A stretch of DNA of 50,306 nucleotides, counting the filler, from Bipalium vagum (taxonomy: Eukaryota), in the NCBI GenBank assembly GCA_037834085.1. It is 3 parts of 3 records of this genome, joined end to end, with 100 filler letters (N's around TTAATTAATTAA, not from the genome) between each part and the next. Parts side by side here need not be neighbours in the genome. Positions count along the whole stretch, not along the records: positions 1 to 16,932 come from JBBMKC010085620.1; positions 17,033 to 33,790 come from JBBMKC010095446.1; positions 33,891 to 50,306 come from JBBMKC010112119.1. One strand, written 5' to 3'. The notes beneath the pieces were generated by a model. That model ran no database searches. It saw nothing but the letters and a program-made list of their open reading frames with translations, and was not told where the DNA came from. Position 1 is the first letter of the stretch. The number at the start of each line of letters is the position of its first letter. Below are positions 16,160 to 44,215 of this stretch, piece by piece. The position numbers and the translations under genes are program-made.

Positions 16160-16293
16160 ACTTTATAACGGCATGGAGATAAAGTCAGAATTAATGCACT
16201 ATTGAAGGAAATAGCCGTCTCAAAGCGTAGGGATTGAGGATTGTATACCAATCTCTATATCTATATAAAGAGACAGCTATTCCCAGAAAGCTG
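16160..16293 (+). repeat. Structured dispersed repeat, copy A (stem-loops followed by TATATAAA)
   Basis: Aligns by eye to 44075-44215 (+) and 38203-38330 (-): GGCATGGAGATAAAG..CTATT..AATAGCCGTCT..AGCGT..CTATATAAAGAGAC..CTATTCC..GAAAG. Confidence 0.7.
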
Positions 16294-16334
16294 CCCAAAG
16301 AAAGAGAAACATTTCGATTTGAAAACGAATTGCC

Positions 16335-16474
16335 AAATTTTGGACAGATTGGCGAATTGAGGACAAATTGCCGAATTGAGGATAGATTGCCGAATTAAGG
16401 ACAGATTACCGAATTGAGGACAGATTGCCGAATTGAGGACAAACTTTCAAATTGAGGAAAAATTGCCGAATTGA
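16335..16474 (+). repeat. Minisatellite, about 7 copies of a 19-bp unit GAATTGAGGACAGATTGCC
   Basis: Units start at 16335, 16354, 16373, 16392, 16411, 16430 and 16449, with a partial unit at 16468. There are no spacers. Confidence 0.92.
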
Positions 16475-16853
16475 CTTCAGGAGACGAATATTCCAGTAAT
16501 TATCTATTCTTCACGATAGATATGCAAAAGGATTTGTGGAGACTACGACCAAGTCTAAATCCACGAGCAGATTTGGCCAGCATACCAGGAGCAGCGTCCG
16601 TGATTCAGGCAGTGCCAACTCCGTCGAACAATCAATAAACATATTTGATTAAAACTTGTGAATCAAAACATTTAACAATGTGTATTTGTGATCCCTTAAT
16701 GTTGTATTGTTTTTATTCTTGTTTTTATTCTTATGTATTAAATGTAATGTCGAATTTGATTGATTGATAAAATATTAAAAATTAAAGCGATAATTAAATA
16801 ATAATAACTAATAAGCAAAAATAAATGAAATAGGTATAATAATAATATATATA

Positions 16854-17990
16854 CACTACCGCTCAAAAGTATTAGGCAGGTACTTGAATTTTTAAATATA
16901 ATACAAATAGATCATTTTCATAAGGATTTATTNNNNNNNNNNNNNNNNNNNNNNNNNNNNNNNNNNNNNNNNNNNNTTAATTAATTAANNNNNNNNNNNN
17001 NNNNNNNNNNNNNNNNNNNNNNNNNNNNNNNNATTTTTTGGTTATATATATGGAAAAAAAGTCCCTAATTTATTAAATAAGGAGTCTTGCATTGAAAACT
17101 TTTAGAAGTTAATAATATGAAGCAAAAATTCAAAGTTTTTTATAAAAAATTGATCAAAATTATTATCACGGTAAATATTACATATATATATATTTATTTA
17201 TTTAATTTTACAAAGAAAAAAAATTTTAAAAATAAATTCAGACTTTTTTTAATGTAATTTTCCTTTTTTTACAATTAAATGATAAACACGAGATTTCTTG
17301 TTTTGAAAAAGCTTATGAATGGTTCCGCGTTTAATGTTCGACCATTCTTGAATAATCGCATTTCGAAGATCATTTTACATTCATGTACTTTCCTTTTCCC
17401 CAAACGTTTACACTGGGATTTAAATCAAAACTAAGCGAGGGGCAATCTAATGTATTAATATCATGATTTTGTACCCATTGTTTAGTTAATTTTAGTACGT
17501 AAATATGCCCACTATTTTGTTGAAAGGTTAAATTATTATTAGAATATGATTGTGTTTATGGTAGAAAACGTTCGTCTAGTATTTTCTAGTATGCTTTCGA
17601 GTCTAAGGTTCCAAAGAGAGTTTCTGCTATATCTAATCGCTCCCCAAACCATCAATCCATCGTCCCCGAATGGCCTTTTTGAAAAGTACTTTTATCAAAT
17701 CTGACGTCGTGCCAATAGTTGTTCTATCCCTATTAATACGTCTTCCTATCGATATATTATCCAATTTAAAGGCGTCTATCTATCACTTTTCATAATCTGA
17801 ATGATCGGCAAGCATAACTTTTGTACATTAATTTTAACAAAAAACATCTTATCATGATAATATTCTGGTCAATTATTTTATAGAAAATTTTGAATTTTTG
17901 CTTCAAATTATAAATTTCTAAAAGTTTTCAATGCAAGACGCTTTATTTAATAAATTAGGGACTATTTTTCATATTTAATATCAAAAATTA
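16854..17990 (-). mobile_element. Decayed Tc1/Tc3-like DNA transposon with long inverted repeats
   Basis: TA followed by a CACTACCGCTCAAAAGTATT terminus at 16852-16873. An inverted repeat of about 120 bp pairs 17056-17175 with 17850-17970. The broken minus-strand transposase gives YWHDVRFDK, FSKRPFGDDGLMVWGAI and DLNPS-type motifs. The element spans a scaffold gap. Confidence 0.8.
16933..17032. other. Scaffolding gap: 44 N + TTAATTAATTAA + 44 N
   Basis: Artificial linker with stops in all six frames; identical to 33791-33890. Confidence 0.97.
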
Positions 17991-18012
17991 GCTTTTTCGT
18001 GTCTTATTTAGA

Positions 18013-18522
18013 GTGATTCTCCAAAAAATCCAAAAAGAAGTAACACTTGATGAATGGAGAAATAATATTTTAAAATACGAACCGGAACTAGTCATGGTTT
18101 ATATTGAGAACCAGTGGTGTCAATCAATACTTGCAATGTATAAAATCCATAAGACTTTCATAGAAATCTAGGACAAAACAATAAAATGTTTAGAAGACAG
18201 TGTAAATCACGAAGATGAACAAAACAAAATTTATTTTCTTTCGAAACCAATTCTAGATCTTTATGAACAACAACGATCTTCACATTCAGCATGTTTCAAT
18301 AGACCATCAACAAAACAAAAGTTATTTTTTAATTACATTAAAACTCTTCCGGATGCAGAAAGAAATCCAACTCATATTAACATTATCAATGCACCGAATG
18401 TTGACTATTCTCAATATTTGACAAATCCTACTTTTCTTTACACCTGGAATCAACCTGCTTTGTCGACCACAGACTTCGTGCACAATATAGAAATTCTCAA
18501 GAGAGGGTTTTATCAGAAATGA
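18013..18522 (+). pseudogene. About 170-codon frame of unknown family with one internal TAG; its TGA overlaps the RING ATG
   Basis: Reads VILQKIQKEVTLDEWRNNILKYEPELVM..IEI*(18169-18171)DKTIKC..LKRGFYQK* with no other stops. Confidence 0.55.
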
Positions 18523-19367
18523 AAACCTCATTGACTTTCATCATAAGAATTGCCATTTCATTTGTGAGCAATAATAAAGATCTGTACTCGCAGCTGCGAC
18601 CTGATATCGAAGACTCCGAAATTTATAAATGTTTAATATGTTCTCAACACGTTCATGAAGAGACCTTTGCCACTTTCCAACGGTGTACTCATAAAGTATG
18701 TTTAACTTGTGTCACACATTTTATGTTAACCCACGGAAGTTGTCCTTTTCACAACTCTGAAATTCATGACCTAATGATGAAGATAGGTCCAGAAGACTGC
18801 AACCGAGAGATTGTTTTAGTTAAAGAATATTTACTCAAAGACACCATAAATATTGGTTTGGAATTGTCTGAAGAGATCGGAAAGCTCAATTTGACGATAA
18901 CGGAAGACTTTATTTCAAATAAAGATCGCATTTCGAATTTGATAGAACAATTTTCTCAAAGTGATTTGGACATAAAAGAAAACAGACTCAGCAAAACCCA
19001 GAAAGAAGTGTTATTAAGGAATTTTGAAAGACCTATTGAGCAAGTTCTAAGCAGGAATATTTTACATTTGTTTAACACCAGGAGAAATAACTTCAAATGT
19101 TTTGTCCATTGCTTGAAGAGGTTTATCTTAAACCATCAATCAAGACTCGCCAATTCTGAAGAAAACGAGAGTATTATTCCTTCTCTTCTTCAATTTTTAT
19201 ACGTGACTCCGGAGGATTATGACAATTTTTACGATTATCTCTCATGTTTTGTCAAAAATGTCTATATCAAGGAGCACATTTCTACAACAATAGTGCAGCC
19301 ATATTTACGGAAGATGAAGGAATGTTATGGGAGGATAGTGACAAGTATAAATTACCAAAACCTATGA
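18519..19367 (+). CDS. Intronless RING-finger protein (C3HC4-like, last ligand His), putative E3 ligase of unassigned family
   Basis: 282-aa ORF with CLIC-x14-CTHKVCLTC-x10-CPFH. It may be the 3' part of a longer broken gene. Confidence 0.7.
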   Translation: MKTSLTFIIRIAISFVSNNKDLYSQLRPDIEDSEIYKCLICSQHVHEETFATFQRCTHKVCLTCVTHFMLTHGSCPFHNSEIHDLMMKIGPEDCNREIVLVKEYLLKDTINIGLELSEEIGKLNLTITEDFISNKDRISNLIEQFSQSDLDIKENRLSKTQKEVLLRNFERPIEQVLSRNILHLFNTRRNNFKCFVHCLKRFILNHQSRLANSEENESIIPSLLQFLYVTPEDYDNFYDYLSCFVKNVYIKEHISTTIVQPYLRKMKECYGRIVTSINYQNL

Positions 19368-19889
19368 AAAAATTGAGGAAATAAAGTCAGTCCTGAAAAA
19401 ATAGATAATCCATATGGATCCGAAAATATAATAATTTTCAAAAAAATAAATTTTTTATTCTTTTTCTTATTTTTACTTTAAAAATAAAAATGTTTTTAAA
19501 AAAATATAATAATTTAAACCAGGATTACCAATAGATGAAAAAAATGATTTTGGAACAGGGCAGGTAGTCGTTAGAAAATGGATTACCAAATCTAAATGGT
19601 TCTATTTCTGATTTTGTCGTGGATTTATTTTATTCTGTTTTAAAGCAACGTGTAATGAATTAAGAAAACTTAACAAAAATGTTGGCCACTTTGTCAGCAT
19701 CAGTCAGTAAAAAGGACGTTAGGTGACTATTTTTCATCATCTGTATATATAAAAGGAAGATCAAATCTAAAAGATAGACAAAATAAAATTATCGATAGTG
19801 TAAGTATAGGTAAAAGGGAGATTTTATTAAAAGGGAACCAGAATAGAACAATTACATTAAATTAACAGTACGAGTTTATTCCATAGAAG

Positions 19890-19965
19890 TGTTAAGATCC
19901 TAATAGTTTTAGAAGATGGAGTTTAAAATAATGTTATTAGGTCTTAACGACGAAGGTTGCTTTCT
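19890..19965 (+). repeat. Fragment of TGTTAAG-terminal MITE or solo-LTR-like family
   Basis: TGTTAAGATCCTAA..AAGATGGAG..TTAGGTCTTAACG..GAAGGTTGCTT matches the reverse complement of 42630-42697. Confidence 0.7.
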
Positions 19966-20630
19966 ATTATTATTGTGAAAAAGTTTAAAATAATAAGGTT
20001 AAAATCGAAAAAAAAAGACTAAATCAAATTCAAGTTTTTCAAAATTATATTTTATATCAAAAAGGGATTTTACAAATGCGAATGATTGTCCTTGATTGAT
20101 TTTAATAAAAATTTTTATTTCAGGGTCAGAATTAATTTGGGGTTAAAAAGCCTTCCCACTCTTAGGATAGAAGTCCTCGAATAGGAAAAACAATTTAACT
20201 CACCACCCTACTTATTGTGTGAATTAAAAACAAAAAAACGGAAAAAGTAATGGGAAATAGAAAAATTAGATGATCCTCAGATCCTGGCCTGAGTATTTAT
20301 TTATTTATTTTAAACCTTACTATTACTACAAAGATTGTATTAAATGTAAATCTTTGTTTGTTTATATTGTAAGACAAGTTGAAAATTATTAAGAGTTTAT
20401 TAAAATAAAACTTTATCTTAAATATAAGATAAGTTGTTAAAAATTTATTTTATTTAATAATTGAGCAAGTTATTTAATCCAACCTTATTTTAAACATAAA
20501 ACATATTATAAACAAATAAAAGTTTATTATAACTTTGTCTTAATTCTAAGACAAGTATTTCCAAGACAAAATAAAATTAATAACTTTAAATATATTTGGT
20601 CGAATGAATCAAATAAATTCGTCACACGCG

Positions 20631-20733
20631 GATATTGGTAGATGAAGGAATTACGGAATGCGAATATTGGTAGTCAAGGAATTACGGAATTGTGAATATT
20701 GGTAATCGTAGGAATTACTAAATTGTGAATATT
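20631..20733 (+). repeat. Tandem repeat, about 3 copies of 31-33 bp (GAATATTGGTAGTCAAGGAATTACGGAATTGT)
   Basis: Three successive ATATTGGTA..AGGAATTAC units are visible. Confidence 0.85.
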
Positions 20734-22273
20734 AAAATCTCTCGTATTTGTCGCCAGAATAGAAATGCAACGGTACTGAATTAATATTGTTTTTGGTAGC
20801 CGATATCGTTGATGGATATTTCTTTTTGACGTTATCTTCAATGGTTATTTCCTTTTGACGTTATCTGTGACGTTAACTGTGTTGGTTAATGTACCCTTTT
20901 ATATTGTTTAATTTACATTAAAAATTATTTTCAATTATTATTAATACATATATTTATTAGTACATATATTTATTATATTATTTTTGTATTTTTTATACTA
21001 TTTTTAATTTTTTTAGAAATTTATTGTATGTAATTTTTATTTTTAGTAACTATAACTTTACTTCTATATATATTTTATTTATATTTTTTGGTTCCATTAA
21101 AACAAATTTAAAATATTTTATATTTTTTATCCATCAAGGGCGATCTTAAATGAACCATACTTTTTTACAACAAAAAATAAAAATTAGTAAAAACCCAACA
21201 TTTATATAAATGAAATCGATTACTAAGACAAATAAAAAATGTCTTAAAATCATAAGGATCACAAAAATCATAATAATTCAATGTCTGGATTGTCTGCGTT
21301 CTATTGTAGAATTTTGGATGGTTTTGGGTTTGGGGACATGGATGATGGCTTTGATGAGCATGGATGATTTTTGGATGAGTTTGAAAGATTGGCTGATGAA
21401 AGTCTCCATAGAAGTATTTTTTTCTTTTAATTCTTAACTAAGTTTGACCACAAACACCAGTTTAATAAGTAAATAAATTTTGGTTTCACATTGCATACAG
21501 GTGGACCGGTTTTCAAATAATAAATACATTTGTAGATCTTATCTTATAAAATCTTGAAATTTCAAATACACTGTCAATAATAAATTAATTGAATACTGGT
21601 GCTCAGCGAACCTGTTGCAGATATCAGGATTAAGCAATTAATTTTCTTTTTATTGTTTCTTTCCCAGTATCTTCTCTTTCCTGTCCACCAAGTTAAGTCG
21701 GAAGATGGACAGGACATTTTTATGAAGGATTTTCAGAGTAAGATACCGAAGAGATCCCTGACTTGTCTCTCTCGTATTCTAACGGGTTCTTATTCACAAA
21801 CTAGTTTTATCAAAAGCATTTATTGTAAAGTATTTGATAAAAAATCGATTTCAATTTATTTGATCATTTTTATGTTTAAAGTCGTTGTAGTAATTTGCTG
21901 TCTTTGTTCTATTTCATTTCAATTTATCGTTTAATATTTATTTAACGAATCTCACTTCTCAAATTTATATTTTCTCAACTGCTGATTTTTTTTTGAAATC
22001 ACACCTACTTCTAACGTTGCGCGCAAATAATTCCTTTTGATGCAATAATAAATTATGCTAAGTTGCCTATACTCATTACGAGCACTTTTAAAAAATTACT
22101 ACCTTTATTAAGAATTAAACACACTTGTTCACATAATACACACCCTACGTTAATTATAGTGCAGTTTTTATAACAGTTAGAATTGCACCTTTTTAAATTA
22201 TAATTTACCAAAAAAAAAACCACAAAACAGTGATTTATTTCAAAGCAAAGATATGATTGTCATTGACAAGTTT

Positions 22274-22830
22274 TTAAGTGTTTGTCTCTGCTCTGGCTAT
22301 GAATTTTTTCCATATATTATGGGTATTAATGATCGTCCTGGCTGCACATTTTTCCATAATTGAATTAATTTCTGCTATTTTAAATCCAAATACTCCGAGT
22401 GTTTGGTAGTTTGATGGGATCCACGAAGACCCGCGTCCGATTATAAATGTTCTGATATCATAGTACCATGTTCTTCCGAGCTCGGATTGAGCTTCGTCCA
22501 ACAAAGTCTGTTATTTTTGCTTCGTCATTGCCCTTGATAGAAATCCCTGATTCAAAGGGGACTTTGACGTTTATAATTAGGTATCTTTTAAGCCTCTTAT
22601 TCACTAATTGTATATCAGGAATTAAGTTGTTATTATTTTTATAAAAAATTCCTTTCTTTTCAACGTATATTTTCCAATCCTTTTTAGGTGGGTACAACAA
22701 ATCAGCTAAGATATCGCGTACATCATTTTGCCTTTTTCGTACCATATGCATTATTTAGATGCAGCTGAATAAGGCGTGTGAGACAGTTTCTTCTTTCCCA
22801 TAGCAATTTCTACAGTTGCCGGCCTTTTTC
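22274..22830 (-). mobile_element. 3' relic of an R2/NeSL-type non-LTR retrotransposon (CCHC knuckle and restriction-like endonuclease)
   Basis: CRNCYGKEETVSHALFSC, RQND (RHN-like), LIPDI..IINVKVPFE and FIIGRGSSWIPSN..HNIW, with a stop and a frameshift. Confidence 0.8.
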
Positions 22831-23259
22831 ATTATTTTATTGGTTGGTAAATCATTATTCCGATACTTCTAAATAATAAATAAAGTACCATTCATCTGTA
22901 CTGCACAGGTGCCGGTTCATCAGCTTTTTGTTTAGGCGATCATTTAGGACAATTGTTTTTGCCAGCCCAATTCTCAAACATCTTTCCTCCTATTTTCTCA
23001 TGTAATAACGGACATAGCACGTGAGTTGTGAATTTGTCAAAGATTGTAATTTTTAATAATAATAAAGGACTAATAAAAATGACTAACTTAGTTTGGTTCT
23101 AGTAAGTTTTAATAAAAAAGTAAATAAATGAATAACGTTTACAATTAAGTTATTTTAGATATAATTTGTAACAGCCTCATTAAAGAACGAAACTTACAAT
23201 AGGCAAAAGAAATCCGATTACAATTAAATTAAAAAATTCATTAATAATTAATAAAGGTA

Positions 23260-24215
23260 ATATTTCGTAGGCAGTCTGTCAGTGTCAATTAAGACTTGGC
23301 ATCTGCGTGGCATGCTCTCGACAAGATTCATGAAGAAATCTCGTTAAAGTTTTTCCATCCAATGTTTAAAAGTTTAAATAAACCATTTTCATCTGTTTGA
23401 TTTCTGTCACTTGTTTTTCCAGAAAAATCCATAAGTTTTCATTAGGATTTAAATCTGGACTTTGAAATTACCAATCTACTAATTACAAATCTAATAAATT
23501 ACCAATTATTAATATTTTTGATCTGTATATATTTTAGATTATTTTTTGCTTTGTGCTTCGGATCATTATCATGCTGAAACACATAATGACCAAACTGGGA
23601 ACAATTTTTTATGAAGGTATTATTTTCCTAATCATTATTTGACAATATTTTTCTTTATCCATTATTCCGTGAATTCTACCGTGATTTCCAACAATGTGTG
23701 CGGCAAAAAATCCCAAAACCATTATCTTTAAACATGTTTTACTGTTCTTGTTATACATGAAGCAGAATAGCCTTCATTTGGAAGTCTCTAAACACGCTTT
23801 GAGTACTAAAAGGGTCTGACCATAATACTTTTCTCCAATCTTCTACACTCAAACTTAGATGTTCTTTTGACCATGACAAATGTCTTTGCTGATTAATAGC
23901 AGAGACAAAAGGTTTTCTCACTTGAAAATGCGAGTAATAGCCATCTTCATGTAATCTGTAACTGAGATGGTTTGTAGTGAAACATTCATTCTCAGATCTG
24001 CTTTAATGGCTTTGGCCGAAATAGTTCGAACACTTACTGCCATATAAACAATGTTTTGATCATCACCAATGGTATCTTTCTTTTCCTTCCACTACCAACC
24101 TTGCGTTTTTCTAATTTGAAGTTTCTTTGAAATCTTTCATAACCTTAGCAATTGACGACTGAGTTTTCCAAATTTTCTTTGATACTTCTCTTCCTGTCAG
24201 TCTGGATTCTGAAAA
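23260..24215 (-). mobile_element. Decayed Tc1 transposase
   Basis: Broken frames give RKPFVS, WRKVLWSD, FQHDNDPKHK and SPDLNPNENLW. Confidence 0.85.
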
Positions 24216-24484
24216 CAATTTTATAACTTAAGAAATATAAAATTCATAATGATTAAAATACCATTGACAAAAAATAATAATAATTTTAATAAATGGAAAT
24301 AATTAATAATATTATTTTCATTTAAAAATTTTAAACAGTTTTATAAAGTTAAAAATACATATCTGAATTAAAAAACCAATTAATAATTTATAGCACCGTA
24401 CTCAAAACAACTTTAACAACGCAATCATAAAAAGCGATTTTATTAAAACATAAAAAACAGATCAAAATTCTTCACGGATATTCT

Positions 24485-25972
24485 TCAAAGGCAATTGCAA
24501 TCGAGTTCAACACTATTGTCCTTGACTGATTCATAATTTTCAGTGAGGACAATGCTATTGGTCTCAGCGAAGTGGTCGGCATATTCCTGTAGAACTGTAC
24601 CAAAATAACAGATAATATCGACGGGCATGAAATGAGACTTTATGAAAGCCCTTGCATTATAAGCGATTTGCCGGCATTCGTTATCGTGGTTTTTACACCA
24701 GTTCAATTTCTGAATCAAATCACTGAGATCGGTTTTGATTGGCAAATAATGATCGTACGGTTTCAGTTGAGAATAGATATATTCGTAATATTTCGTTTCC
24801 TCTTTCAATATCACAGATCCTCCAGCTAAGCTCAAAGGAAATCGATAAGCAGCCACAGTTCCGTCCATATTGACAACGTATTTGTATTGAAAGAAATCAT
24901 TGAAAGGAATTGGTCGTTCCAACTGACCCAAGGTTGAATCATTAGAAAAAAAGAACATATTCGTTAATCTGGCATTCAACATATCGGGATATTGCAATGA
25001 CATCCTCACCAAATTCAGTCTGGCATTGCTGCTATCTCGACCTCTCCAGAAGCCTTTTTCAACTTTTTGGTGCCAACTGTAATTAGAATCTTTCAAAGCA
25101 GTGAATATATCCAAATAAACACGACCCATCATTTCAAGAACGGTTTCCATAGTTTCATATGATGGAATGACTATATCATTTGTGTCATCACTTCCACACC
25201 AACTGAAAATGTTGAATTTGTCCCGACTTTCATAGGAAAGAGGCCAGTCTCCCAAATTCATAAGAAAATCCATATCAGGTAAAACGGCTTTATGTGATAA
25301 AGAAAGCAAAGCAGCATCACTAAACATTTTGAAGCCAACATGCTCACCAAAACATTTTCGATAGATTTCGTTAGAGATTATTTTATATCTACAAACGGCA
25401 ACGGATGTAAAAGGCTGATATCTTTTACTGAAATTTTCGAAATTCTTTTCAAAATCTGCTGGTTGGAAATGTTGAAAATCTCTCCAGATCTGATCGTTAT
25501 TTTTTGGACAGTTAAGTTTATGGGTCAAGAATTCCTTGAGAGAAAATTGTGGACAATGACATTTTTCTGAATAAAGTGGTGCTCTGAGTATAATACAAAA
25601 TTTGCCAATGTAAGTCTGAGTTGGCAACCAAAGAAGAGTAAAGACAACATTATCATGAATGATTGCTTTGAGAAGACGAAATCGAATAATAAATGTTCCG
25701 TCATTGAGATAAAGCACTTCGTGATGAAGAAGAATCAGCTGACCAGAAGAATAAAATTGGAAAGATACTTCAATTAATTTATCCGCTCGACTCAATTCAA
25801 TGTTTGTCACATTTTCCAGATCCTTATTCACTAGCTGGACAAAAAAGTATCTCACCGGAAGTGTAAGGGAACTGTCTAAACCTGGTCCATAAATTATAAA
25901 ATTTTCAGGATCCAAAGAATGTGACAATATTTCATTAAAAGTTATAAAAAACAATAAAAGAAAAATTTTCAT
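24485..25972 (-). CDS. POGLUT2: Protein O-glucosyltransferase 2/3 (KDELC): signal peptide, filamin-like domain and CAP10/GT90 domain; intronless
   Basis: YGPGL..LPVRYFFVQ, LPDMDFLMNLGDWP, FSWCGS, GFWRGRDS, YKYVVNMDGTVAAYRFP. The true stop may be at 24462-24464 (see findings). Confidence 0.92.
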   Translation of the reverse strand: MKIFLLLFFITFNEILSHSLDPENFIIYGPGLDSSLTLPVRYFFVQLVNKDLENVTNIELSRADKLIEVSFQFYSSGQLILLHHEVLYLNDGTFIIRFRLLKAIIHDNVVFTLLWLPTQTYIGKFCIILRAPLYSEKCHCPQFSLKEFLTHKLNCPKNNDQIWRDFQHFQPADFEKNFENFSKRYQPFTSVAVCRYKIISNEIYRKCFGEHVGFKMFSDAALLSLSHKAVLPDMDFLMNLGDWPLSYESRDKFNIFSWCGSDDTNDIVIPSYETMETVLEMMGRVYLDIFTALKDSNYSWHQKVEKGFWRGRDSSNARLNLVRMSLQYPDMLNARLTNMFFFSNDSTLGQLERPIPFNDFFQYKYVVNMDGTVAAYRFPLSLAGGSVILKEETKYYEYIYSQLKPYDHYLPIKTDLSDLIQKLNWCKNHDNECRQIAYNARAFIKSHFMPVDIICYFGTVLQEYADHFAETNSIVLTENYESVKDNSVELDCNCL

Positions 25973-26382
25973 AGAAGAAATGTAACTAAAAAATGAAAAA
26001 TATTTAATAAATTTTTGTTTAAATCATCATAATATATTTAGATAAATATATAGACAGATAAAAAATATTTGTATACACTTCGTTTCACTTGAAAAGTGAC
26101 ACTTAAATTTTGTTTATCATATATTATATATATATATAATTTATATTATATTATATTATATATAATTTATATTATATCACTTTAAAAATTCTAGAGATAA
26201 GAATTATATTAGTAAACGTTACAAACTTTATTAAAAATAAAATGAACAACCAATTTTTGTAAGATTAGTTATTCAGTTTGTTTCATTTGAATAGCGATAC
26301 CTGTGATTTTTAAAAAATAGTTTAACATAAGAATAAATGTTCAAAAAAATAACAATTTCAGTCTCAAATTAATCAATTCAAA

Positions 26383-30870: not shown

Positions 30871-31712
30871 ATGAGATGAATTTATTTTTGTCATTATTTA
30901 GTCATATTTTGAAATTTTTAAAATAGTTTTTAACTTTTTTAATTTTAAAAGATGTTAATTGCTTGAATTGAATACGTAAATGAGAGGAATTTTATAGTGA
31001 AATAACTTTTTTAAAAAGTAACTTCCAAAAAAAGTTAGATACTGAAAATTGATATTAGTAAAATATTAATCAAATTTTGGGCTCTCTTTCTTATCTGACT
31101 TAAAATTATTAATTGATAATAGTTGGTTCGAAAAAGTGTTTTTAAATAACTTATGAGAATTTATTATTCGATAATAATTTTTATCAAATTCAATTGTTAC
31201 TCGATATAAATATCGTCTTCTGTTTTGATGGTTTCAACCGGTTGGAGATTTGTTTCACTGGATTCTCAATTCTTCAAACTCTCATAGTTCTTTCAGTTTC
31301 TTTCTTCTTTCAATTTTTCTCAACTTACTAAATTTTCAATTCTTGCTTAGTTCAAAATCTAGTTCGGTCACCTCTGCTAATTCATTCGTTCTGGAAACTC
31401 CATTACTTCATGGAGTTGGAGTTTTCAGAGCTCCTGTGGTTCATAAATTATTTCGAAAGTGCATCGAAAGGACAATCTCCATCAGAGATATTCTCTGTTT
31501 ACAGCTTTTTCCATTAACTAAAGTGAAAATTGTGAGTTTTAATTATGATTAATAATTCACTTACACTTTAATTATTATATTCTTCCTTTCCAAAATGAGT
31601 TATAATAAACTCTATGTAGTTATAATAAACTATCTTTACCTTTCAAATTTTCTTTCTTAGTTGTAATAAACTTAGAATTTTTGAAGGCGAATTTTTATGA
31701 TTTTCCTGTGGG

Positions 31713-31856
31713 TATTTATACTAGTTTTTATTATGTGTGCCAGCATTCCTACAATTATCATTGGTTTTTTTAAAATGACTTCATTTCTGCCCTTTTTTCT
31801 CATTTGACGTCATAACTCATGCCACTGTAACCCACACCAAATCATCACTGACGTCA
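31713..31856 (-). promoter_or_regulatory. Candidate Pol II promoter: two CRE palindromes, a CRE-like site, CCAAT and TATA
   Basis: TGACGTCA at 31849-31856 and 31805-31812, TGACTTCA at 31776-31783, CCAAT (minus) at 31760-31764, TATAAATA (minus) at 31713-31720, in promoter-like order. Confidence 0.6.
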
Positions 31857-32234
31857 TTTCCTTTTTTTAATTAGTGTTATTATTATTTTTAATTTTTATT
31901 TTATTAAATTTTATTATTATTATTAATCTTCTTTTTATTTTATTTAACATTTTTTATTATTATATATCATTATATATCATTACTCTTTATTATACCATCA
32001 TTATTATATACTAAATAATAAATAATAAATAACAATAAATAATAAATAATAATTATAAAATCAATATTACAATGCTGTCCATATGTTTGGAGCCACTCCT
32101 GTAATTTACATAAAATGATAGAAATATATAATTTTAATTACTTTAATTTAGTTTATATTTAAATATATGGAAAAATATGTGTGGCTTATATATTGGCAAT
32201 AACCCTTTCTTTAATACGTCCTGATAGGCAATAG

Positions 32235-33790: not shown

Positions 33791-33890
33791 NNNNNNNNNN
33801 NNNNNNNNNNNNNNNNNNNNNNNNNNNNNNNNNNTTAATTAATTAANNNNNNNNNNNNNNNNNNNNNNNNNNNNNNNNNNNNNNNNNNNN
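33791..33890. other. Scaffolding gap: 44 N + TTAATTAATTAA + 44 N
   Basis: Same artificial linker as at 16933. Confidence 0.97.
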
Positions 33891-33926: not shown

Positions 33927-34046
33927 TGTTAAGTTCCTAAAAAGACCACTATCGACATTCTTAACCCGATTAAATATTAATCAATAACAATCATTTTTAT
34001 TTTCATAATCAATTATCTTTTTAGGTCTTTATTTTAAAACTTAACA
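33927..34046. mobile_element. Short TGTTAAG...CTTAACA element (MITE-like)
   Basis: Begins TGTTAAGTTCCTAAAAAG (identical to 42406), ends AACTTAACA, and has TA on both sides. Confidence 0.55.
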
Positions 34047-36192
34047 TATTTAAAGAAAGAAAATTTATGTTACTTTATTTGATAGAAATGAAAAACTCAA
34101 CCCGTAAATAAATTGAAAAAAACATTTTAAAAATTATTTTTGATGATGTTATAAATGTGTTGGGTTGGTCAAAGGCACAAAACTGGATAGGGGCAATAAT
34201 AATAATTATAATAATAATAATAAAGAATACTATCTTTGTGTTAAAACCAAGAATATAGTTAACTAAATTAAAGAAATTTTATTCATTTTAATAATTTTTT
34301 GAATTATTTATTTAATTTACCAATATAATTATATAACACTGACATAATTTTAATTATGGTATAGAATTTACAAATTGTAACAATAAAGATAAAATTAACA
34401 CATGGTATGGTATTCTGATTATTTTTTAATCACTATATTTTTTCAGTCATTAAGAAAGTAATAAAATAGATATACAGGATTTTTAAATGCAAAAGGTCAG
34501 CAGCGACAATAATACACAGTAGTTATTTGATTTTTACGTCTTTGATATTGACCTATGATACTGATTTATCTTTATTAAATACTTGAATTATATAATATAA
34601 AAATTTTAAAAATAATAGGATAAAAAATTAATCATAAAATAACCAACAAAAACCAAAGCTTTCATTTTAAAATTCAATAAAAAAATTGTGAAAGTTCAAT
34701 TATTATTGGATTGATCCAGTCTTAAATTAATATCATTTCAAAAATATAATAAATAAATAAATAGAAAATATATTTTATTATAAAAATTTTTTGACAATTA
34801 AAAGGTATTTTAAGGAAGTTTATTGCTTAAAATGAAATATTTTCTGTATGAGCATTGAGAGTCATGAATTGAAAATGAAAACAAAAACAACAATTGTGAA
34901 GCACCAAATTCTTCATATTTTCAAAATTAATTGTGCCTCAATAAAATTAATATCGTCATCGGTTGTTATAATGAATCAAAAATCATGTACACTGTAAAAT
35001 CAACCAATTCAAATAAATAAAAGGCCTGCACAGATGTCACCAGTTTTTCCAACAGCTGAGAAAAGTTTAAACATTCATTGAAATAAACCAAAGTCAAAAC
35101 GCAAAAATATGATACTGAAACTGAAATGGTATCATAAAACAATGTCACTTTTCTCTGTTCAGAGCTGTCCACAAATGTGTCCATTCCATCAAATCAAATG
35201 GTTGCAACTAATAAAATAGTTATCGATTTTACTTCAGGCTAATTTTTAACGGCATACAAGCCATGAAGAGCCACTCTACAAACTTTATGAGCTTGCGTAG
35301 GTGAGTCATCCGCAATCCGATCAATACAACACGTTGCATACCGTGCGCTCGTGTGCGCTCCGTGAGAACTCAATCATTTTGGCATTGTAGAAAATCATTC
35401 AACCCTGAAAACAGTTCTATCGTTTTTTCCTGTAACTAAGATGATAGATCAGAATCTTATGAAAAGTTTTTTGAAATATTAAGCCATTATTTTATTAATT
35501 ATACTGTTTTAATTATCGATTTTTATTCCACTTCAAAACGGTAGTAAATGAGATTATTGTGCATTGTTTGATAAACGAAATTCTTTTCATGTCCGTGTAC
35601 AAAGTCATTTCTGAACAAAAAAGTATTATTATTATTATTAGGTTGTCACATATGAAATGTCCGAATTTGGAAATCTATTTTTAATTAATATAAGTCAAGT
35701 TATAATCATAAAATTAATTGGCATATAAATATATAATTATTATAATAAATTATATATAATTATGATATAATATTTCAACGTAACATTAAGACTGGATCTT
35801 TAAATCAATAAGTATCTAAAATAATTTCTTGAAATTTTACTTTTTTGTAAAGAAATCGATTTTTATTAAATATTTGTTATAACATTTTTTCAAAAAAAAT
35901 TATATTTATCATGGTAAATATATCTTTTTGAAATCGATAAGAAATTAAAAGTCCTTATTTAAAATGAAAAAATAATTGATTTCAAAATCCAGATAAATAT
36001 AATTAATTACTATAATTAAACCATTGGTTTTAAAGGAACATAAACTACCCATTAATTTCGCCATTACAATCTTTTCCCGTTAAATCTTAAAAGGTTTTCT
36101 GAAGAAAAACCCGGGAAAAAACATAATCAAATAATAATCAAAACATACAATTGTTGATAAAATAAAAATAAAAAAACCATTGAGGAGGATTT

Positions 36193-36274
36193 TTGATACA
36201 TCCAAAGAAGGTGAACATTCTAGTCACATTGAAATCCTTGTATTCTAGAATGCCACCATCTTTGGTGTGATCAA
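36193..36274 (-). ncRNA. mir-61: pre-miRNA of the miR-279/miR-61 family; predicted mature 3p UGACUAGAAUGUUCACCUUCUU (36226-36205)
   Basis: Minus-strand hairpin CCAAAGA-T-GGTG-GCATTCTAG-AA-TACA [AGGATTTCAA] TGTG-A-CTAGAATGT-T-CACC-T-TCTTTGG, plus a basal TTGAT/ATCAA stem. The 3p arm starts UGACUAGA, the family seed. Confidence 0.85.
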
Positions 36275-36366
36275 TACTGTTCAGTAACACAAAAGAAAAC
36301 CAGAATCAACTGGCGATTATCGTCCATAAAACATCATAAAGTTTGATAGCATCAATATGATATAAC

Positions 36367-36678
36367 TATTTATATTGCGTTCAATTCACTAAAACGTAGA
36401 GTAAATGTGAAGTGCACTGGTGTACGTGTGTTGAATTGTGCGTGCGCACGTAAACGTACCCCCGTTGATAGTGGTGAGCACTTCAAGTTTCGGTCTAGAA
36501 ATTTAGAATACAAGCTAAGCTCAGTGGTAGCTCTGATTATTATAATTCACATACACCGACCCATCGGTGACATTGATAATGACAATAATCGTAAATATAA
36601 TATAATATAATATTATCATAATAATAACTACTAACATGATGGCATTAGGTCCACGTGTAGTACCGCACCGATGAGTCA
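36367..36678 (-). promoter_or_regulatory. Candidate promoter of the pri-miRNA
   Basis: TATAAATA (minus) at 36367-36374, TACGTG 36423, GCGTG 36440, TGCGCAC 36443, CACGTA 36447, CACGTG 36652 and TGAGTCA 36672, in a CpG-rich patch within AT-rich DNA. Confidence 0.55.
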
Positions 36679-37349
36679 CAGGAAGAAAACAAAAGAAGAC
36701 TAAAACAACTTCAGCTCATCTTTATCGTAGTTTGTATTCTGCAAATTTTGAGTGGGTTTCATAGAATATCTAAAACTTTTTTCAATAATTTTTGCACTTT
36801 TATTTTATTTTATTCGTGTTTATCTCTTATTTCGATTCATTTATCGAGTCTTGTTATTACGTAATGATATCGAATTTCTGTTTTATTTTAAATGTTAAAT
36901 ATATAAAATAATTATTATTATTATATAAATATTTGAATCACACCAATTAATATGATAGAGAAAGCCATTATAAAATTTACCATGATAAATATTTCGGTAA
37001 TCAAAATTGAAACTTGTTCTGGTGATATTTTTTTCTATGGTTTCAAAATATAATATTGTATATTTTATTTATTTATATTATTTATATGTAGTTTTTGAAC
37101 AAAAACAAATTTATGATTTAAAATCTATTAAAATAAATAATTTCTTAACTGATGATTATTGATAAGTAGTTTGAAACATGTTTCAAAAAGATAAAAATAA
37201 AAAAAGATTTTCTTTTCAGTTATGGAAAGAAAAATATATTTGTAATTCTTTGATTTCTAATTGAATTAAAAATATTTATCAAAACTCAATTATATTTAAT
37301 TATTTTTTTATTGATTTACATTAATTCAAAATTGATTTTCCTACTTTCA

Positions 37350-38170
37350 TAAATGCAGCTTCACAAATTCAAAATGAAGGTAAACATATTCAAAATGAGA
37401 GTAAAATCCCGGGATTTTGATCTTTCTATGTCAATATCTTAAACTGATTTTATTGTTAATTTCACTCGTGTTAAAAAGTAATCAATTTTATACTATTATC
37501 AATAGATACACCAAAACAATAAAATTCTTTTCCCATTTTTGACATGAAAAATCCCAGCCAATTAAGATTTGATGAAATGTCTTATCAAACTTTTAAAGGC
37601 TTACGAAAATTATAATATTAATAAATTTTGTATTGATGTGTTTAAGCTTGCACCGTTAGAACTGTGACTTAGTCTAAAATGGAATTGCATGTCTCTTAAT
37701 TGTTTTCAGACTTATTATTAGTTGATGAATCAAAGATTTCACTAAAATTATTTAAAAACCATTTGAATGAGACCAGCTTTGAAAGAATAAAATTAATTAA
37801 CAATCGATTATGCATCAATTATCAACATACAATTTGGAGACAGAGAATAGCACATTTATATAATAATAATTTTTAAGAAAACGTTGATATATACTCGTTC
37901 AGTTTAGACCTACAGATAGAACTCAGGTTGATGCTAATGTTAACAAATTCTGGGAAGAGCATTATGGTGCTTCATAACGAAGTGTAAGCTCTTTTCAAGT
38001 AAATATATTTTAAAAATTAGGATAGTAAATAAGAAAAATATTTTAATAAACTCTTACAAGGAGACTGAGCTCTTTTGATAAATTTCTTGTTGAAAATTAA
38101 GATCCTGAACAAAAAATCTTTGATTTTATTAGAAATACTTCTACAGTTGTTCATCAATATTATTCTTAGG
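37350..38170 (+). pseudogene. Decayed spliced gene of unknown family
   Basis: Exon-like blocks bounded by ag/gt (LLLVDESKISLK..TIWRQRI; FRPTDRTQVDANVNKFWEEHYGAS*), with stops. Confidence 0.3.
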
Positions 38171-38202
38171 TATGGGAATTAACTAATACTGTTAATTAGT
38201 AT

Positions 38203-38330
38203 TACGCTTACAGACGGCTATTTTCCCTAATAGCCATTAGCTCTATCTCCACGCTGAGATAGAGTTAAATCAATGCTAATGGAAACCTGCAGTCCACCCG
38301 AGAACGACTGTCAGAGAATCCATTAGCCTA
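38203..38330 (-). repeat. Structured dispersed repeat, copy B
   Basis: Minus strand CTCTATCTC-AGCGTG-GAGATAGAG, then GGCTATT-AGGGAA-AATAGCC-GTCT..AGCGT, with an extra upstream stem GCTAATGGA/TCCATTAGC. Confidence 0.7.
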
Positions 38331-39455
38331 ATATGTCGAAATCCCCACGAAAAAATCAAAAATAAAGAATTATATGAATCAATCAATAATCAAATAATAT
38401 CAATTAAATCAAAATTTTAATCAAATGTCTAATGAAAATGTCAATATTCTTTATCAATATTCTTTTAATTAACTTTGTACTTTTCAATTAATTTTTTTTG
38501 TTGGGTTTGCCAAGAGAACATTCCTATGAACCCTGATAAAAATTATATGTTAAAGACCGCAAAAGTGTCTAGAATATTTATAATTATTGTAAATTAATTA
38601 TTAAGACCACAAAAGTGTCAGAAGTAAAATAATAATAATAATTATCCGAAAAATAATAATTTTAGTTTAATTAACAAGTACAAAGTTAATTAAAAATAAT
38701 ATAAAAAAATTTTATTTTTTCAAAAAAATGAATTTTATCTTGACAATGGCGACGCTGAATTCTCAAGATTAGTTCCGGGTCTACAAGGAGGGACCGAGTA
38801 ATCATTTTGAATTTGGGAATTTGTAATCGACATTCCCCAGTGATAAAAAAAGAGAATTTACATTCCCAGCAATAAAGTTTGTCTATGATTGACTGATCGT
38901 CTAACCAAAGTGATATTTAAGAAGTTGGAATCCGCAATGGATTGCCACAAAATTCTTCGAAGGAAACTACGTCAGAAGAAATTATTGAACATTATATTTA
39001 TATAATAACATTATATATATAATAATTAGTAGCTTTATTTATTATTTTTTTTCATTGTCATTATTTTATGTCCGAATTAGGGGCTTATTAACAATGCATT
39101 ATTGATAATATGAATAATTGAAAATTGATTGCTACGTCTTAGTCGTATGCGTTCGATCTGAATCCATAATTAAGCCTCATGGCGCTTTATATATGTAAGG
39201 ATTTAATAAAGTTTCCTTTGGCATAATATTTTAAGTATTTCAAACTTTTTAATTTCATTGTTTTGATATTATTTTAAGCTATTTGATTTAAATATAAATA
39301 AAAAATTATTTTACCTTTAAAAATAATTTCATTATCATAATCTAATTTAATTATTTAAAATGAATTTTCATGTTTTACAATATTTCTTTTGTTATAATAA
39401 TAAAATTTCCTGCAACATTTTAAATTATGTAACTTAATTCAATATTCATTTTATC

Positions 39456-41330
39456 ATGGAAAAAGATATTTTACATAATGATTCAGTGTGCCGCACATTT
39501 TCTCAAAACATTAAAAGGCTCATTCATTGGGCACCTTTGATTGCTCTTTTCATAATTTTTTTCATAGCAATAGTAACAACGAACTGTATTATTTATGTCT
39601 ATCATCCTTTCTCGAATTGGATATGCTTCATACATTTTTCCATCTATGTTTTCGAGTTCTATCTTGTTATGTCCAATTATCTGACTGCAAGTTTTGTCGG
39701 TCCAGGATTTGTACCGTTGGAATGGAAACCGGTATGTTGTTTGTAAGATTATTTAAATTATTGGAAAACTTTACAATAGGATATTCAAAGCCATTATGAG
39801 TATCTTCAATTTTGCGATTTATGTGAAGGCTACAAACCACCGAGATCTCATCATTGCCGAAAATGTGATAGGTGTGTCATGAAAATGGATCATCATTGTC
39901 CGTGGATCAACACGTGTTGCGGACATTTGAATCATGGATATTTTGTGTATTTCCTGTTCTTTGCTCCTGTCGGCTGCGTGCATTCAACTTATTTGTTGGC
40001 TATCACATTGTATTACGCGATCTATGTGGTAATTATAGATAATTTTATCAATTTCTGTTTATTAGTTTCAAACTAATTTCAATAATCTTAAACGCTTTTT
40101 TATTCTCTTCACTTTTATCTAATGCACAATACTTTTACTATCACCTTTACGCAGGATTACTTTTTCGCTTACGACGACAGTGTGGTTGTCGTTTTGTCAC
40201 TGACGGAATTTCTGTGTACATTTTTCGCAACCGGCTTAGCTATTGGTGTCGTAATTGCCGTCGGATCACTGTGGGTGATTCAGATGAAAGGTATCATGAA
40301 AAACGAGACAGGTGTGGAAACGTGGATTAAAGAGAAGGTCTTGCAATAGAGTTTTTTGTGTGATGTTAAACTCGTTGTTCAGTCGGAACTTAGGATCCAA
40401 GAAAGTGGCAACGAGGAGAAATTCGTATACCCTTACGATTTGGGTCGTTGGAAAAATCTAAAAGAAATAATGTCTTGGAGTGGAAAAAGCAACGGAGATG
40501 GAATCACGTGGCCTGTGCGAGAAGGTTGCGGCCAATTTGACTTAACTGTAAGTGAATTATCCTGCCAGATGATTCGATCTTGATGATCCTTTGGGAAAAG
40601 TTTATCGATTAGTTGAATATGTTTTGTTAAATCGATATTAACATTAAAATTCGTCGTAATGATTGTTTTGTAAAAATAATTATGATTATAATCACTTCAA
40701 AAATTATTGATTAATTTAAAAATTAATTGTCGATTGTGTTTCAACATTAAATCATGTCTTATTTTTTAAAGATAGAACAAATCCGTCAAAAGAAGGACAA
40801 AGATTTCCATTCTCAAAATTACGAGATCAAAAAGTTCTACAGTGGTTCTCTTGTTCCGTTATTGAGTTTCGGATGCCGAGTGTCTATGGGGTCTCCTTGC
40901 ACGGATGAAAATCGAATCCCCGTGTCTCCGGGCCAAATTGTCAAAGTTACTCGTTGGAGAAAGTTGGTTTCAATGTTTTTCATTATTGATTTTTTCGTTG
41001 TTTGAATTAATTGATAATTCACTTTTGAAAATAATCGAAATTTAGGCACTGGTTGTATGGGCAGATAATTCACCCACCCGACATTAATTCATTCATTTCC
41101 GAGAAACACCGAGTGAAACACGGTACTTTCACTTTTCTATCTATTTTTATTGATTTTTTTAATTTTTAGGTAAACCAAGAGGGTGGTTTCCGGCCATTTG
41201 TGCTCGGCAATCGTTTTCCGATGACAGTGCAAACGTTAATGTGACTCGAAACGGCAAGGCAACGACAGCCACAATGCCCAAGCCCACTGCTCCCTCCTCC
41301 AATACGTCTGGACATGTGAAATGTGACTGA
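39456..41330 (+). CDS. ZDHHC6: Palmitoyltransferase ZDHHC6 (DHHC-CRD and SH3), 433 aa, 7 exons
   Basis: Exons 39456-39731, 39780-40028, 40155-40337, 40383-40547, 40772-40962, 41046-41122 and 41170-41330 total 1302 nt in frame. Motifs HWAP, GPGFVPLEWKP, KMDHHCPWIN, YPYDLG, PCTDENRI, HWLYG, RGWFP. Confidence 0.95.
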
Positions 41331-42405
41331 AACACGTTTCTGATCCCATCATGATTAAAGTTGTTATTTTTGGTGCTTGTGTTTCATTTTTTTATTATTG
41401 ATATCAATTATTATTATTATTGCTTTTATCGATTATTATTAAATTACCAATACTTATTTTTGTGTAAGGTATTAAACTGTCAATATCGATTGTTCATGTT
41501 ATATTTTAATTATATTTTTTCTCGTTTTACTATTTTTCTCAGTTTTCTGGACCACTTGGGAATTGATTATCTCTTTGCGGTTTTTTGGCATATGTACCGT
41601 GTAACCATGGCAATATTAGAGATCGTGGAAATTAAAGAAATTTCTATTTTTCTTTCCCGTTTTATATTTATATATATCAATTAATCGATTATTGTTAATT
41701 CTCGGTTTGGTGCACAAAAGGAGATTCGATTTTCAAATATATTTGAAAATATTATCTATTATTATTATTGTTGTTGATTATTTCTATAATTACCAGTTGG
41801 ATGTTCCGTTTGTTGTTTTAAATGCAAATATTTTTTTAGCACAAAAAAATAAAATCATTTTCCTGTTTGATAAATTGATATTTCTTGTGCTTTAGAGCCC
41901 ACTGTTACCTTTTTGTCAAATAAATATTGGGAAATGTTTTGCTTGAAATATATTTTCGTTGTAGTGTTTAAATTATCTATCTTAAAAAGTGGGGAACGAT
42001 ATTCAATCACCTTGGTTTTATTCTTTGTTATTTAATAAGTGGTTTTATCGATTATCAATAAATTCGAATTTAAAACACAATTTGTGATATACGGATTAAT
42101 AATAACAAAATCGACGAAAATCTTGAATTTGATAACATTCATAAAAGTTTTTGAAGATTTGAAAATTATTTGAATAGGTAATTGAAGTCGTTCGTTTTAA
42201 TTATGTACGGAAATTATTGACAATAGATATGAAGTTGGATGCTTAACTCTTTCAGGCTTGAATTATTGTTAACTGATAAAAAATATCGTTTTACTAATTA
42301 TTAATAAGAAGGAAATGATAAAAACGTATGAAAATTTTAACATTTTTATTTATTTGCACACAGATAGCGATACAGTAAATTATTTCAAATTAGTTTGATA
42401 AGAAA

Positions 42406-42697
42406 TGTTAAGTTCCTAAAAAGTGACTGATTTTAAGTTAAGAAAAATTATAAAATCTTCTTAAATTGAGGTCCTCTGAGCCTAAGGGCGAGAGGATTTT
42501 TCTTAAATAATATTCCTAAATCAATCAAGGTTGATATCAGACCTTTCTAAACTTAAACTATTTTAATCAAAATAAAAATATTTAAGTCAAATTCGTTCTC
42601 TTAGTTATTTTAAACGATTATAAACGAACAAGAAAGCAAGCAACCTTCACACGTTAAGACCTAAATACAATAAGCTCCATCTTTTAGGATCTTAACA
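42406..42697. mobile_element. TG...CA element with about 17-bp imperfect terminal inverted repeats (MITE or solo LTR)
   Basis: TGTTAAGTTCCTAAAAAG ... CTTTTAGGATCTTAACA, with relatives at 19890 and 33927. Confidence 0.65.
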
Positions 42698-44074
42698 TAG
42701 TGATGTAAAAATAAGTAAATTAATCAGACATCAAACACTCGAATTTTGTGACAGATGATAAATAGTGTTTACCATAGTAATGATTTGTAGAAGACAATCT
42801 AAAGATATTAATAGTGAAAAATAATAGGTTTTAAATATTCTTTTGTTTAAAACTTGTCAAATATCAACTTTAGATATTGTTTTGCGTATATAGTTTTACA
42901 TTCAATCAATATAACAAAAAATCTTAATCTGTTGAAGCTTCCTTGAAACTCAATCCGTATTTGTTAAGCGTTTGATCTTTCAAAAATTCAACTTTAATTC
43001 AGCAAAGACGGTATGAACGATGTCTCTTACTGGAAAAATAAAACTAATAAGATATAGAATATATCTATTTGAGAATTAACCTTTATAAAAAAAACTCTAG
43101 TCCTAAAAATTACTTGTACTAAAAATCAAATCAAAATTAAATTCTCAAAAAAAAATAATAATCACAAATATTAAAATAAATGTTTTAAAGATTCACACAA
43201 GAGTTCCAATGTCCCTTGGTATAATCACCACAAATTAATAAAAATAATTACAAAATTTTAATTAAATAAAAATTATTAACTAATTTAATTAATAAAATAA
43301 TTAAAATTTAAATAAATATTTTGATGAAAAATCTTTAAACTATCTAACAAATGAGTAATCAAATGACTAATCAAATAAATATTAATTTTATTGAGAGGTG
43401 TGTGATACGTATTTTCAAAAACTTGCCTTAATATTTTTGAATCAATCAAAATAGTTTTTTAAAGCAGTACTTTTGATTATATGTTTTTTAAATTTAAAAA
43501 TTCAGTTATTTTATTATTAAAAATAACCGAAACCAAATTTTGATGTATGTGATAAGAATTTTATAATTTAAACAGCAATTATTTCTCATTTGAAATCTAA
43601 GTTTTTTAGAAAATTTTAATAAAATAAATAGTAATATTTTTAAAGAGTTACCAGGAAAAAAAATGAATTAAATTAAATTAGAAGATAAATTTAAAATATA
43701 TATATAATTAAGTTTTTTAATTTCAAATCATGCATAATTAAATTATTTAAGAATCTTTGTCAAGAATTTAAAGAATCAAAAGCAATATTTCTAAATATGA
43801 ATATTATCAATTTAATAATTAAAAATAAAATTTCATTTTTATTATGTGGTTAATTTGATTTTATAACATTTTTAGATGATATTAATAAAAATTTACTTAT
43901 TTAATAAAAGATATAAAATTATTTTGACTGATAAATAATAATCATAATAAGTTAAATTAATGATAATAATAATTATAATTAATAATTTTAATAATAATAT
44001 AAATATTTTTAAAATAAAAAAACGAAAAAAATCATTAATAATTTAGCTCCATCGTCGAGCATATAAATTTTGTT

Positions 44075-44215
44075 CTGTCTCGGCGTGGAGACAGCATTGG
44101 AGATCAAGGGCTATTCTAAATAATGGCCATCCGGAATCGTCATTCGAGCGTGGAGATTAGTGATCGTATCCAGTCTTCACGCCTATATAAAAAGACGACT
44201 ATTCCTGGAAAGGCC
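44075..44215 (+). repeat. Structured dispersed repeat, copy C
   Basis: CTGTCTC-GGCGTG-GAGACAG; GGCTATT-CTAAAT-AATGGCC; GCGTGGAGATT/AGTCTTCACGC; then CTATATAAAAAGAC. Confidence 0.7.

Follow-up and report, generated by a model that had tools for sequence, protein, structure and literature searches.

A diverged hairpin- and TATA-bearing repeat in Bipalium vagum and its possible origin as the terminal repeat of a retroelement

Introduction

Three diverged stretches of DNA in Bipalium vagum (assembly GCA_037834085.1), here called copies A, B and C, share a set of small hairpins and, in two of them, the TATA-box-like sequence CTATATAAA. They raise the question of what kind of element they come from. 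All three lie in a window of 50,306 nt, the whole stretch of DNA analyzed here, which consists of three separate pieces of ~16-17 kb joined by 100-nt artificial spacers at 16933-17032 and 33791-33890 (44 N, 12 bases, 44 N). The first piece carries copy A and the third carries copies B and C, so that two of the three joined pieces and both strands are represented.

A preliminary description of this window treated the copies as a candidate new structured RNA or mobile element and argued for selection on the RNA. We find that a repeated, structured, mobile-element-like module without an Rfam match stands, while the argument from RNA selection is not established. We consider the chances even that the three stretches are diverged fragments of a non-coding, promoter-bearing terminal repeat of one retroelement family, of the pseudo-LTR (long terminal repeat) or LTR type.

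Results

The core of each copy was aligned locally with every other 150-nt segment of the window on both strands. The best matches of copy A are copies B (score 61) and C (59), with the best unrelated segment at 38 and the 99th percentile at 31 (n=1964). Copy B finds A (59) and C (47) before anything else (next 37; n=1966), and copy C likewise finds A (66) and B (47; next 34; n=1966). All three copies lie at the positions first given for them, each having the other two as its top matches among ~1,965 segments. Self-comparison of the window with blastn recovers the A-B match as well (E=3.9e-4). The shared motif occurs three times against 0.02 expected, with three exact occurrences by a second pattern, a significance that is overstated because the patterns were derived from the copies themselves. 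Neither a hidden Markov model profile nor a covariance model finds a fourth copy in the window, the sole extra match being copy B's own antisense. By alignment, the three copies are true homologues.

Stems 1-3, the RGCRTG loop and CTATATAAA are found where they had been placed. In the 76 columns that run from stem 3 through the TATA box, copies A and C agree in 50, and their alignment fades 25-40 nt past the box, by 16308/44231. The limits of copy B require revision: its extent had been drawn to 38330, but 38270-38330 is not homologous to A or C and forms a two-stem hairpin private to B. Homology spans instead 38269 to ~38167, ending just before the TATA position, where the copy is truncated. 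Across the copies, the stem-1 loop, CTATT/AATRGCC, AGCGT and the TATA box are kept in place, and the linkers and loop 2 have diverged.

The host DNA is AT-rich, with decayed Tc1, pogo and gypsy fragments between the genes, and the three copies sit among these fragments. The GC islands, as in copies A and C, measure 400-550 nt. Copy A presents, in order, its GC island, the TATA box, a tandem array, AATAAA and a GT-rich tract. Copy A alone has the full set of TATA, AATAAA and GT-rich tract; copy C has the TATA box and a T-rich tract, with AATAAA only at 44636, and copy B has none of the three.

The flanks of the copies are unrelated to each other, except for a block of ~135 nt that we call the U block. 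Its A-side and B-side versions are identical in 99 of 142 columns (70%; 0 of 200 shuffles as high) and stand in opposite orientation relative to the hairpins. A U block lies <300 nt upstream of two of the three copies, for which random placement gives P=0.001 with the distance picked post hoc. The U blocks are themselves made of near-palindromic AGACC...GTC units and make up a second small repeat family.

Taken together, the dispersal of the copies, the conserved TATA box, the end of homology near the expected transcription start, one polyadenylation-like tail, the truncation and the linked inverted block read best as the control region of a retroelement terminal repeat. The copies themselves, truncated and rearranged, we infer to be relics. 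In the parent element, the module would have driven transcription from the TATA box, with a start ~25-30 nt beyond it, at the point where the homology of A and C fades. This sequence would also have been single-stranded in the element's RNA or complementary DNA (cDNA), where stems 1 and 3 could fold, and the conserved RGCRTG loop may be the feature that a protein recognized and read. Replication over such a hairpin-rich template could then have led to template switches, by which stems were repaired, new copy-specific inversions arose and neighboring segments were flipped. We infer every step of this working from what is directly seen, namely the homology, the stems, the TATA box, the linked inverted block, the inversions and the transposon-rich intergenic setting.

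This reading develops one option of the preliminary description, an LTR or untranslated-region structure: the TATA box, AATAAA and GT-rich tract of copy A speak for it, while neither convincing TG...CA ends nor a parent open reading frame (ORF) were found. Several results weigh against it. A scan for TG...CA ends and target-site duplications gave 10 candidates for copy A and 21 for copy C, none prominent and none with a 6-nt duplication (the copies are old). Near the copies, no remnant of reverse transcriptase (RT), integrase or endonuclease was found: none of the 24 frames in the flanks of B and C yields a transposon domain, and when 120 relatives of gypsy pol were compared with the window by tblastn, the matches were confined to the pol fragment at 48971-49905 and one weak unrelated stretch. 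Past the TATA box, the resemblance of A to C is not significant (135 of 500 shuffles score as high), an unexpected finding if both belong to one terminal-repeat family, and AATAAA is not near the T-rich tail of copy C. A U block upstream of copy C was suspected and is not supported by comparison. Five G-U-keeping changes in stem 3 are left unexplained by template switching. Finally, the sections of PMC3601003 drawn on here do not list conserved multi-hairpin structure ahead of the TATA box as a feature of LTRs. In favor of a non-coding repeat, no coding signal appears in any of 18 frames over the copies themselves, and these frames contain no domain either; the contig of copy A ends ~300 nt after its GC island.

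The leading rival places a hitherto undescribed structured RNA on the TATA-sense strand, perhaps a self-cleaving ribozyme, which at the end of a retroelement or short interspersed element (SINE) would free the element from read-through transcripts. We regard it as unlikely, though it survives best among the alternatives. Its case begins with the compensatory changes that had been claimed for the stems. Double changes do occur, three in stem 1 with its conserved loop and one in stem 3, but none in stem 2, and the totals fall inside the shuffle control. For stems 1-2, 3 of 17 pairs carry double changes (59 of 500 shuffles equal); for stem 3 in A and C, the one double change and five one-sided G-U-keeping changes among 15 pairs were confirmed as described, and 249 of 500 shuffles score as high. 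Because the alignments hold only two or three sequences, these covariation tests are weak either way. The further claim that wobbles favor the TATA-sense strand is not borne out: G-U against A-C pairs over the three stems count 7 vs 4 (one-sided p=0.27, not significant), and 7 vs 6 when the two additional A-C pairs of copy A's alternative long stem are included.

RNAalifold finds stems 1-3 unaided, yet the ensembles predicted for A and C differ from this common fold. The four-stem drawing is predicted only for copy B's stems. The arms of stem 2 were located in all copies (5 bp in A, 7 bp in B and C), but its pairing probability as RNA is 0.00 in A and C, and a longer nested stem prevails (12-bp core in A: 0.84 sense, 0.99 antisense). 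Stem 1 of copy C reaches only 0.02 in the sense-strand RNA ensemble. The proposed fourth small stem does not hold, with a probability of 0.00 as RNA and 0.44 as sense-strand DNA in A, and on inspection of the sequence its counterpart in C would require a 1-nt loop. The segment just past the TATA box pairs upstream in A and C with different partners: in A with stem 2's 3' arm (13 of 15 pairs), in C with the insertion found only there. Folded by itself, stem 3 has the greater stability on the TATA strand (-10.0 vs -5.5 in A, -14.8 vs -9.3 in C), and whole-region fold z-scores are lower on the antisense strand (-3.8, -3.9 and -3.2, vs -2.3, -1.9 and -2.0 for sense). Unrelated segments fold as strongly: z lies below -2 in 32 of 332 window-strand tests, several of them outside the copies. 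The structural case for a selected RNA fold is weak, and RNA-level selection, as first proposed, is not established by the shuffle control, the strand test or the fold, which is off-ensemble in two of three copies.

Two points from known ribozymes speak for this rival: retrotransposons commonly carry ribozymes (PMC6765202), and the domain order of A and B recalls the twister table in PMC8501958. Against it, the copies have no twister P4 3' arm, P2 pair or GAGGG, the hammerhead core is found in 0 of 6 strands, and no Rfam match falls below E=0.5. A related conception would be an RNA motif of invertebrate retroelements in which the RGCRTG-loop hairpin is combined with a switch from stem 2 to a long stem and back, the long stem concealing the stretch that contains TATA, the whole acting as a rewired twister-like ribozyme or an RNA-processing switch. 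This model we hold to be slightly less probable still.

Next in rank, and rather improbable, is that the copies are the terminus of a non-autonomous rolling-circle element (Helentron/HINE, DINE-1-like) or of some other element that moves as single-stranded DNA, in which state the hairpins would be recognized by an HUH or tyrosine-recombinase enzyme. HUH origins typically combine a conserved loop with a variable stem, and antisense folding is as good or better in A and B. A terminal hairpin after a T-run with its arms 6 nt apart, together with the central tandem array in A, fits PMC7492417 and PMC4067079; the geometry of stem 1 matches a 5' subterminal inverted repeat (subTIR) with an adjacent inverted repeat. 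However, the stem-1 arms differ between the copies, whereas identical subTIRs define Helentron families, and no stem-1-matching 3' subTIR with palindrome lies within 0.8 kb of A (to the contig end) or 4 kb of B and C. A GTCY microsatellite was not found, and the conserved TATA box would be unexplained.

Copy-specific inversions bear on a further rival. In copy B, reverse complements of the next two 7-mers stand where stem 3 should have its 5' arm, and the former 3' arm can still be aligned; shuffled sequence gives a perfect 7-bp stem at a fixed start in 0.4% of cases. We interpret this block of copy B, rc(X) rc(Y) X Y (rc, reverse complement; 38177-38204), as a probable template-switch footprint. 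Template switching can make and repair hairpins, including by loop-to-stem copying (PMC8794818), and several of the copy-specific inversions are better explained by it than by RNA selection. Since they fit template switching, part of the apparent covariation may be mutational in origin. One could go further and suppose neutral decay only, that is, old fragments whose inverted repeats were made or repaired by template switching, with no selection on the fold. The inversions in B and C, the near parity of G-U and A-C pairs with A's long stem included, and the strong folds away from the copies would all agree with this. However, the stem-1 loop, CTATT/AATRGCC, AGCGT and TATA are held in place despite diverged linkers and loop 2, so past selection on the parent element is needed, and we judge neutral decay alone fractionally less probable than the rolling-circle origin. 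Least probable of all, and very unlikely in our view, is host multi-copy regulatory DNA (a small-RNA or short-gene promoter, or an origin) with inverted repeats as dimeric protein sites in duplex DNA: the stem-2 arms conserved around a variable 6-nt spacer and a pair of RGCRTR motifs, spaced 55-65 nt, ahead of a perfect TATA box would suit it, but no conserved downstream transcript or ORF is present, B has no TATA box, and variable yet still-pairing stem-1 arms are unexpected for a duplex binding site.

Is the family behind this candidate terminal repeat already known? The Rfam search proposed at the outset gave no family match: there are 0 matches in the window, and the best for the copies (E=0.59) is far below the gathering score. 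In agreement with the early statement that the layout is neither hammerhead nor transfer RNA (tRNA), the hammerhead core CTGANGA, a feature of canonical Penelope-like clades that is absent in Naiads, occurs in 0 of 6 strands, and the window has 0 tRNA genes. RNA polymerase III box A and box B are likewise absent on 6 of 6 copy strands, and a SINE head, one of the options offered, is disfavored. Likenesses to pistol, hepatitis delta virus (HDV)-like, spliced-leader or small nuclear RNA, and group II domain V were dropped after by-eye checks against the consensus. An Sm-like site precedes stem 1 in copy C only.

Pattern searches of outside collections returned 38 viral loci, then 23 viral, 16 metagenome and 7 genome loci (46), nothing in further searches, and 1 genome locus in the last. 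None of the 38 has the stem-1 loop motif upstream; among the 46, stem 1 reaches at most 5 of 7 pairs, and 3 of 7 in the single locus that has an RGCRTG loop. The covariance model scores the training copies at 83-88 bits and none of 84 outside loci, which had been pre-selected for part of the motif, above 24.8. We read these 84 as chance, given the lack of stem 1 and the low covariance scores; relatives in viral, metagenome, prokaryote and phage collections are thus none among the 84 pattern loci examined. Phage blastn yielded five short matches only (E 0.009-0.4). Absence from these collections says little because they contain little animal DNA. Literature searched by family terms rather than by motif turned up no description of this element, which is not proof of its being unpublished. 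The copies represent a real, unclassified repeat family that is most likely new, as judged on Rfam and the family-term literature.

Coding interpretations were rejected. An "RGD"-like frame has no coding signal. A 63-codon frame after copy C's TATA box gave a Macro match of only E=0.13 and no usable Atlas match; of its seven matches to multi-stretch proteins, two were aligned and show only summed weak repeat matches. The nonamer TAGTATTAC occurs on the opposite strand of copy B but in neither A nor C, and we attribute it to chance.

Coordinates of the parts of the copies and of the U blocks are collected in Table 1.

Table 1. Parts of the three copies and of the U block in the window
Feature	Position	Strand	Description
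Copy A stem 1	16160-16185	+	7 outer pairs, 2 mismatches, closing C-G, loop GGCATG; RNA pairing probability 0.96
Copy A stem 2	16199-16214	+	5 bp, 6-nt loop; RNA probability 0.00, loses to long alternative stem
Copy A stem 3 and small inner hairpin	16225-16260	+	Stem 3 itself 16227-16258; RNA probability 0.17 in context
Copy A alternative long stem	16207-16284	+	16207-16221 with 16270-16284, 13/15 Watson-Crick; encloses stem 3 and TATA box
Copy A TATA-box-like CTATATAAA	16261-16269	+	A-C homology fades ~16293-16308
Copy A 19-nt tandem array	16329-16474	+	7.7 units; copy A only
Rest of copy A GC island	16475-16740	+	AATAAA at 16634-16639, then GT/T-rich tract
Copy B core	38167-38269	-	Stem 1 38264-38241 (9 bp), stem 2 38235-38216 (7 bp), rearranged stem-3 region
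Copy B four adjoining 7-mers	38177-38204	-	Order rc(X) rc(Y) X Y
Copy B-only upstream two-stem hairpin	38275-38327	-	One arm reverse-complementary to the linker between B's stems 1 and 2
Copy C stems 1 and 2	44075-44128	+	Stem 1 44075-44094, 7 bp, loop GGCGTG; stem 2 7 bp, one G-U
Copy C-only insertion, ~11 nt	44134-44146	+	Partly reverse-complementary to segment just past TATA box; probability 0.74
Copy C stem 3	44148-44182	+	Probability 0.99
Copy C CTATATAAA	44183-44191	+	A-C homology ends by 44231
Rest of copy C GC island and T-rich tail	44232-44480	+	Next AATAAA at 44636-44641
U block upstream of A	15751-15884	+	275 nt upstream of A's stem 1
U block upstream of B	38498-38675	+	234 nt upstream of B's stem 1; inverted relative to hairpin module
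Partial third U block	48742-48860	+	~110 nt before 5'-truncated Ty3/gypsy pol fragment; no hairpin module beside

Other features of the window include a GC-richer island at 20620-20900 with a 32-nt tandem array, the unit of which is loosely like the 19-nt unit of copy A. The decayed Ty3/gypsy pol fragment at 48971-49905 (+) begins mid-RT and has 54-66% identity to protein P0131. A miniature inverted-repeat transposable element (MITE)-like element at 17036-17987 has terminal inverted repeats of 139 nt that are 81% complementary. An intronless 320-codon frame at 18405-19367 (+), with a weak RING finger match (E about 0.006), adjoins a Tc1-like MITE. A translated fragment at 22460-22754 (-) we take to resemble the restriction-like endonuclease end of a non-LTR retrotransposon.

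A CBP/p300 gene is present in the window, as is a POGLUT/KDELC gene (24485-26023, -) in one open frame; its top named matches are annelid and mollusc proteins at 42-48%, suggesting a divergent host lineage of spiralian type, and its nearest match overall is a metagenomic protein at 58%. The region 31370-31860 contains a strong hairpin (31388-31431, z=-3.4) and two TGACGTCA sites, at 31805 and 31849. A pre-miRNA (microRNA precursor)-like hairpin lies at 36193-36274 (-), with z=-5.7 and a stability reached by 0 of 200 shuffles; its 3' arm opens with what is presumably a miR-279/miR-61-type seed, and its only Rfam match is an unrelated plant miRNA (E=1.2).

Discussion

If the copies are a retroelement terminal repeat, they form a lineage-specific repeat family, ordinary in kind, that helps annotate this genome and offers a compact case in which template switching mimics covariation. 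If the window is typical, three copies in 50 kb would extrapolate to about 60 per Mb. Should a larger alignment give true covariation and a strand, the module would instead count as a new RNA motif carried by an animal mobile element, and it is in such elements that hammerhead, HDV-like and twister variants were found.

Of the known systems compared, twister and the T-variants of the Schistosoma Perere-3 retrotransposon share with copies A and B a TAA, a hairpin, CCG and a 9-nt segment ending in AAGC (PMC8501958). The copies are nevertheless not members, as they have no CCGG P4 3' arm, P2 pair or GAGGG/T1 partner, and copy C breaks the spacing. In a by-eye comparison with Table 1 of PMC8501958, GTAG, GTAA or GTGG follows (A)AGC in place of CCGG; no P2 partner or GAGGG was seen by eye, and the L4 pattern is absent from all three sense strands.

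In HINE and DINE-1 Helentrons, a 5' subTIR with inverted repeat and central repeats are described (PMC7492417; PMC4067079), and the hairpin after a T-run and the tandem repeats of copy A are similar to these. Unlike such elements, the copies have no 3' subTIR with palindrome and no microsatellite, and the arms of their terminal hairpin vary.

For solo LTRs of animal Metaviridae (Ty3/gypsy), the conserved motifs comprise TATA, AATAAA and a GT-rich stretch (PMC3601003), and copy A resembles them in its TATA box, AATAAA and downstream GT-rich tract, as well as in its tandem array and GC island. In contrast, TG...CA short inverted repeats and a 4-6 bp target-site duplication were not found in the copies, and here it is the TATA box that is conserved and the downstream part that is not, the reverse of the usual animal pattern. 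The only tie of the window's gypsy pol fragment to the copies is the U block.

Penelope-like pseudo-LTRs (pLTRs) differ from the copies in that no adjoining RT or GIY-YIG remnant, tandem pLTR pair or microsatellite target accompanies the latter, and a conserved hairpin set is not among the features seen in the portion of 10.1101/2021.04.23.441226 used here. According to that source, transcription of Penelope and Chlamys starts inside the pLTR, and Penelope-like elements occur in truncated, tandem and inverted arrangements, including Naiads without hammerheads. The copies share with Naiads the truncation, the inverted neighboring segments, the lack of TG...CA ends and of a hammerhead, and an invertebrate host. 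Since Naiads show arrangements of this truncated and inverted kind, lacking both TG...CA ends and hammerheads, we slightly prefer a Penelope-type pseudo-LTR to a classical LTR as the source of the three copies.

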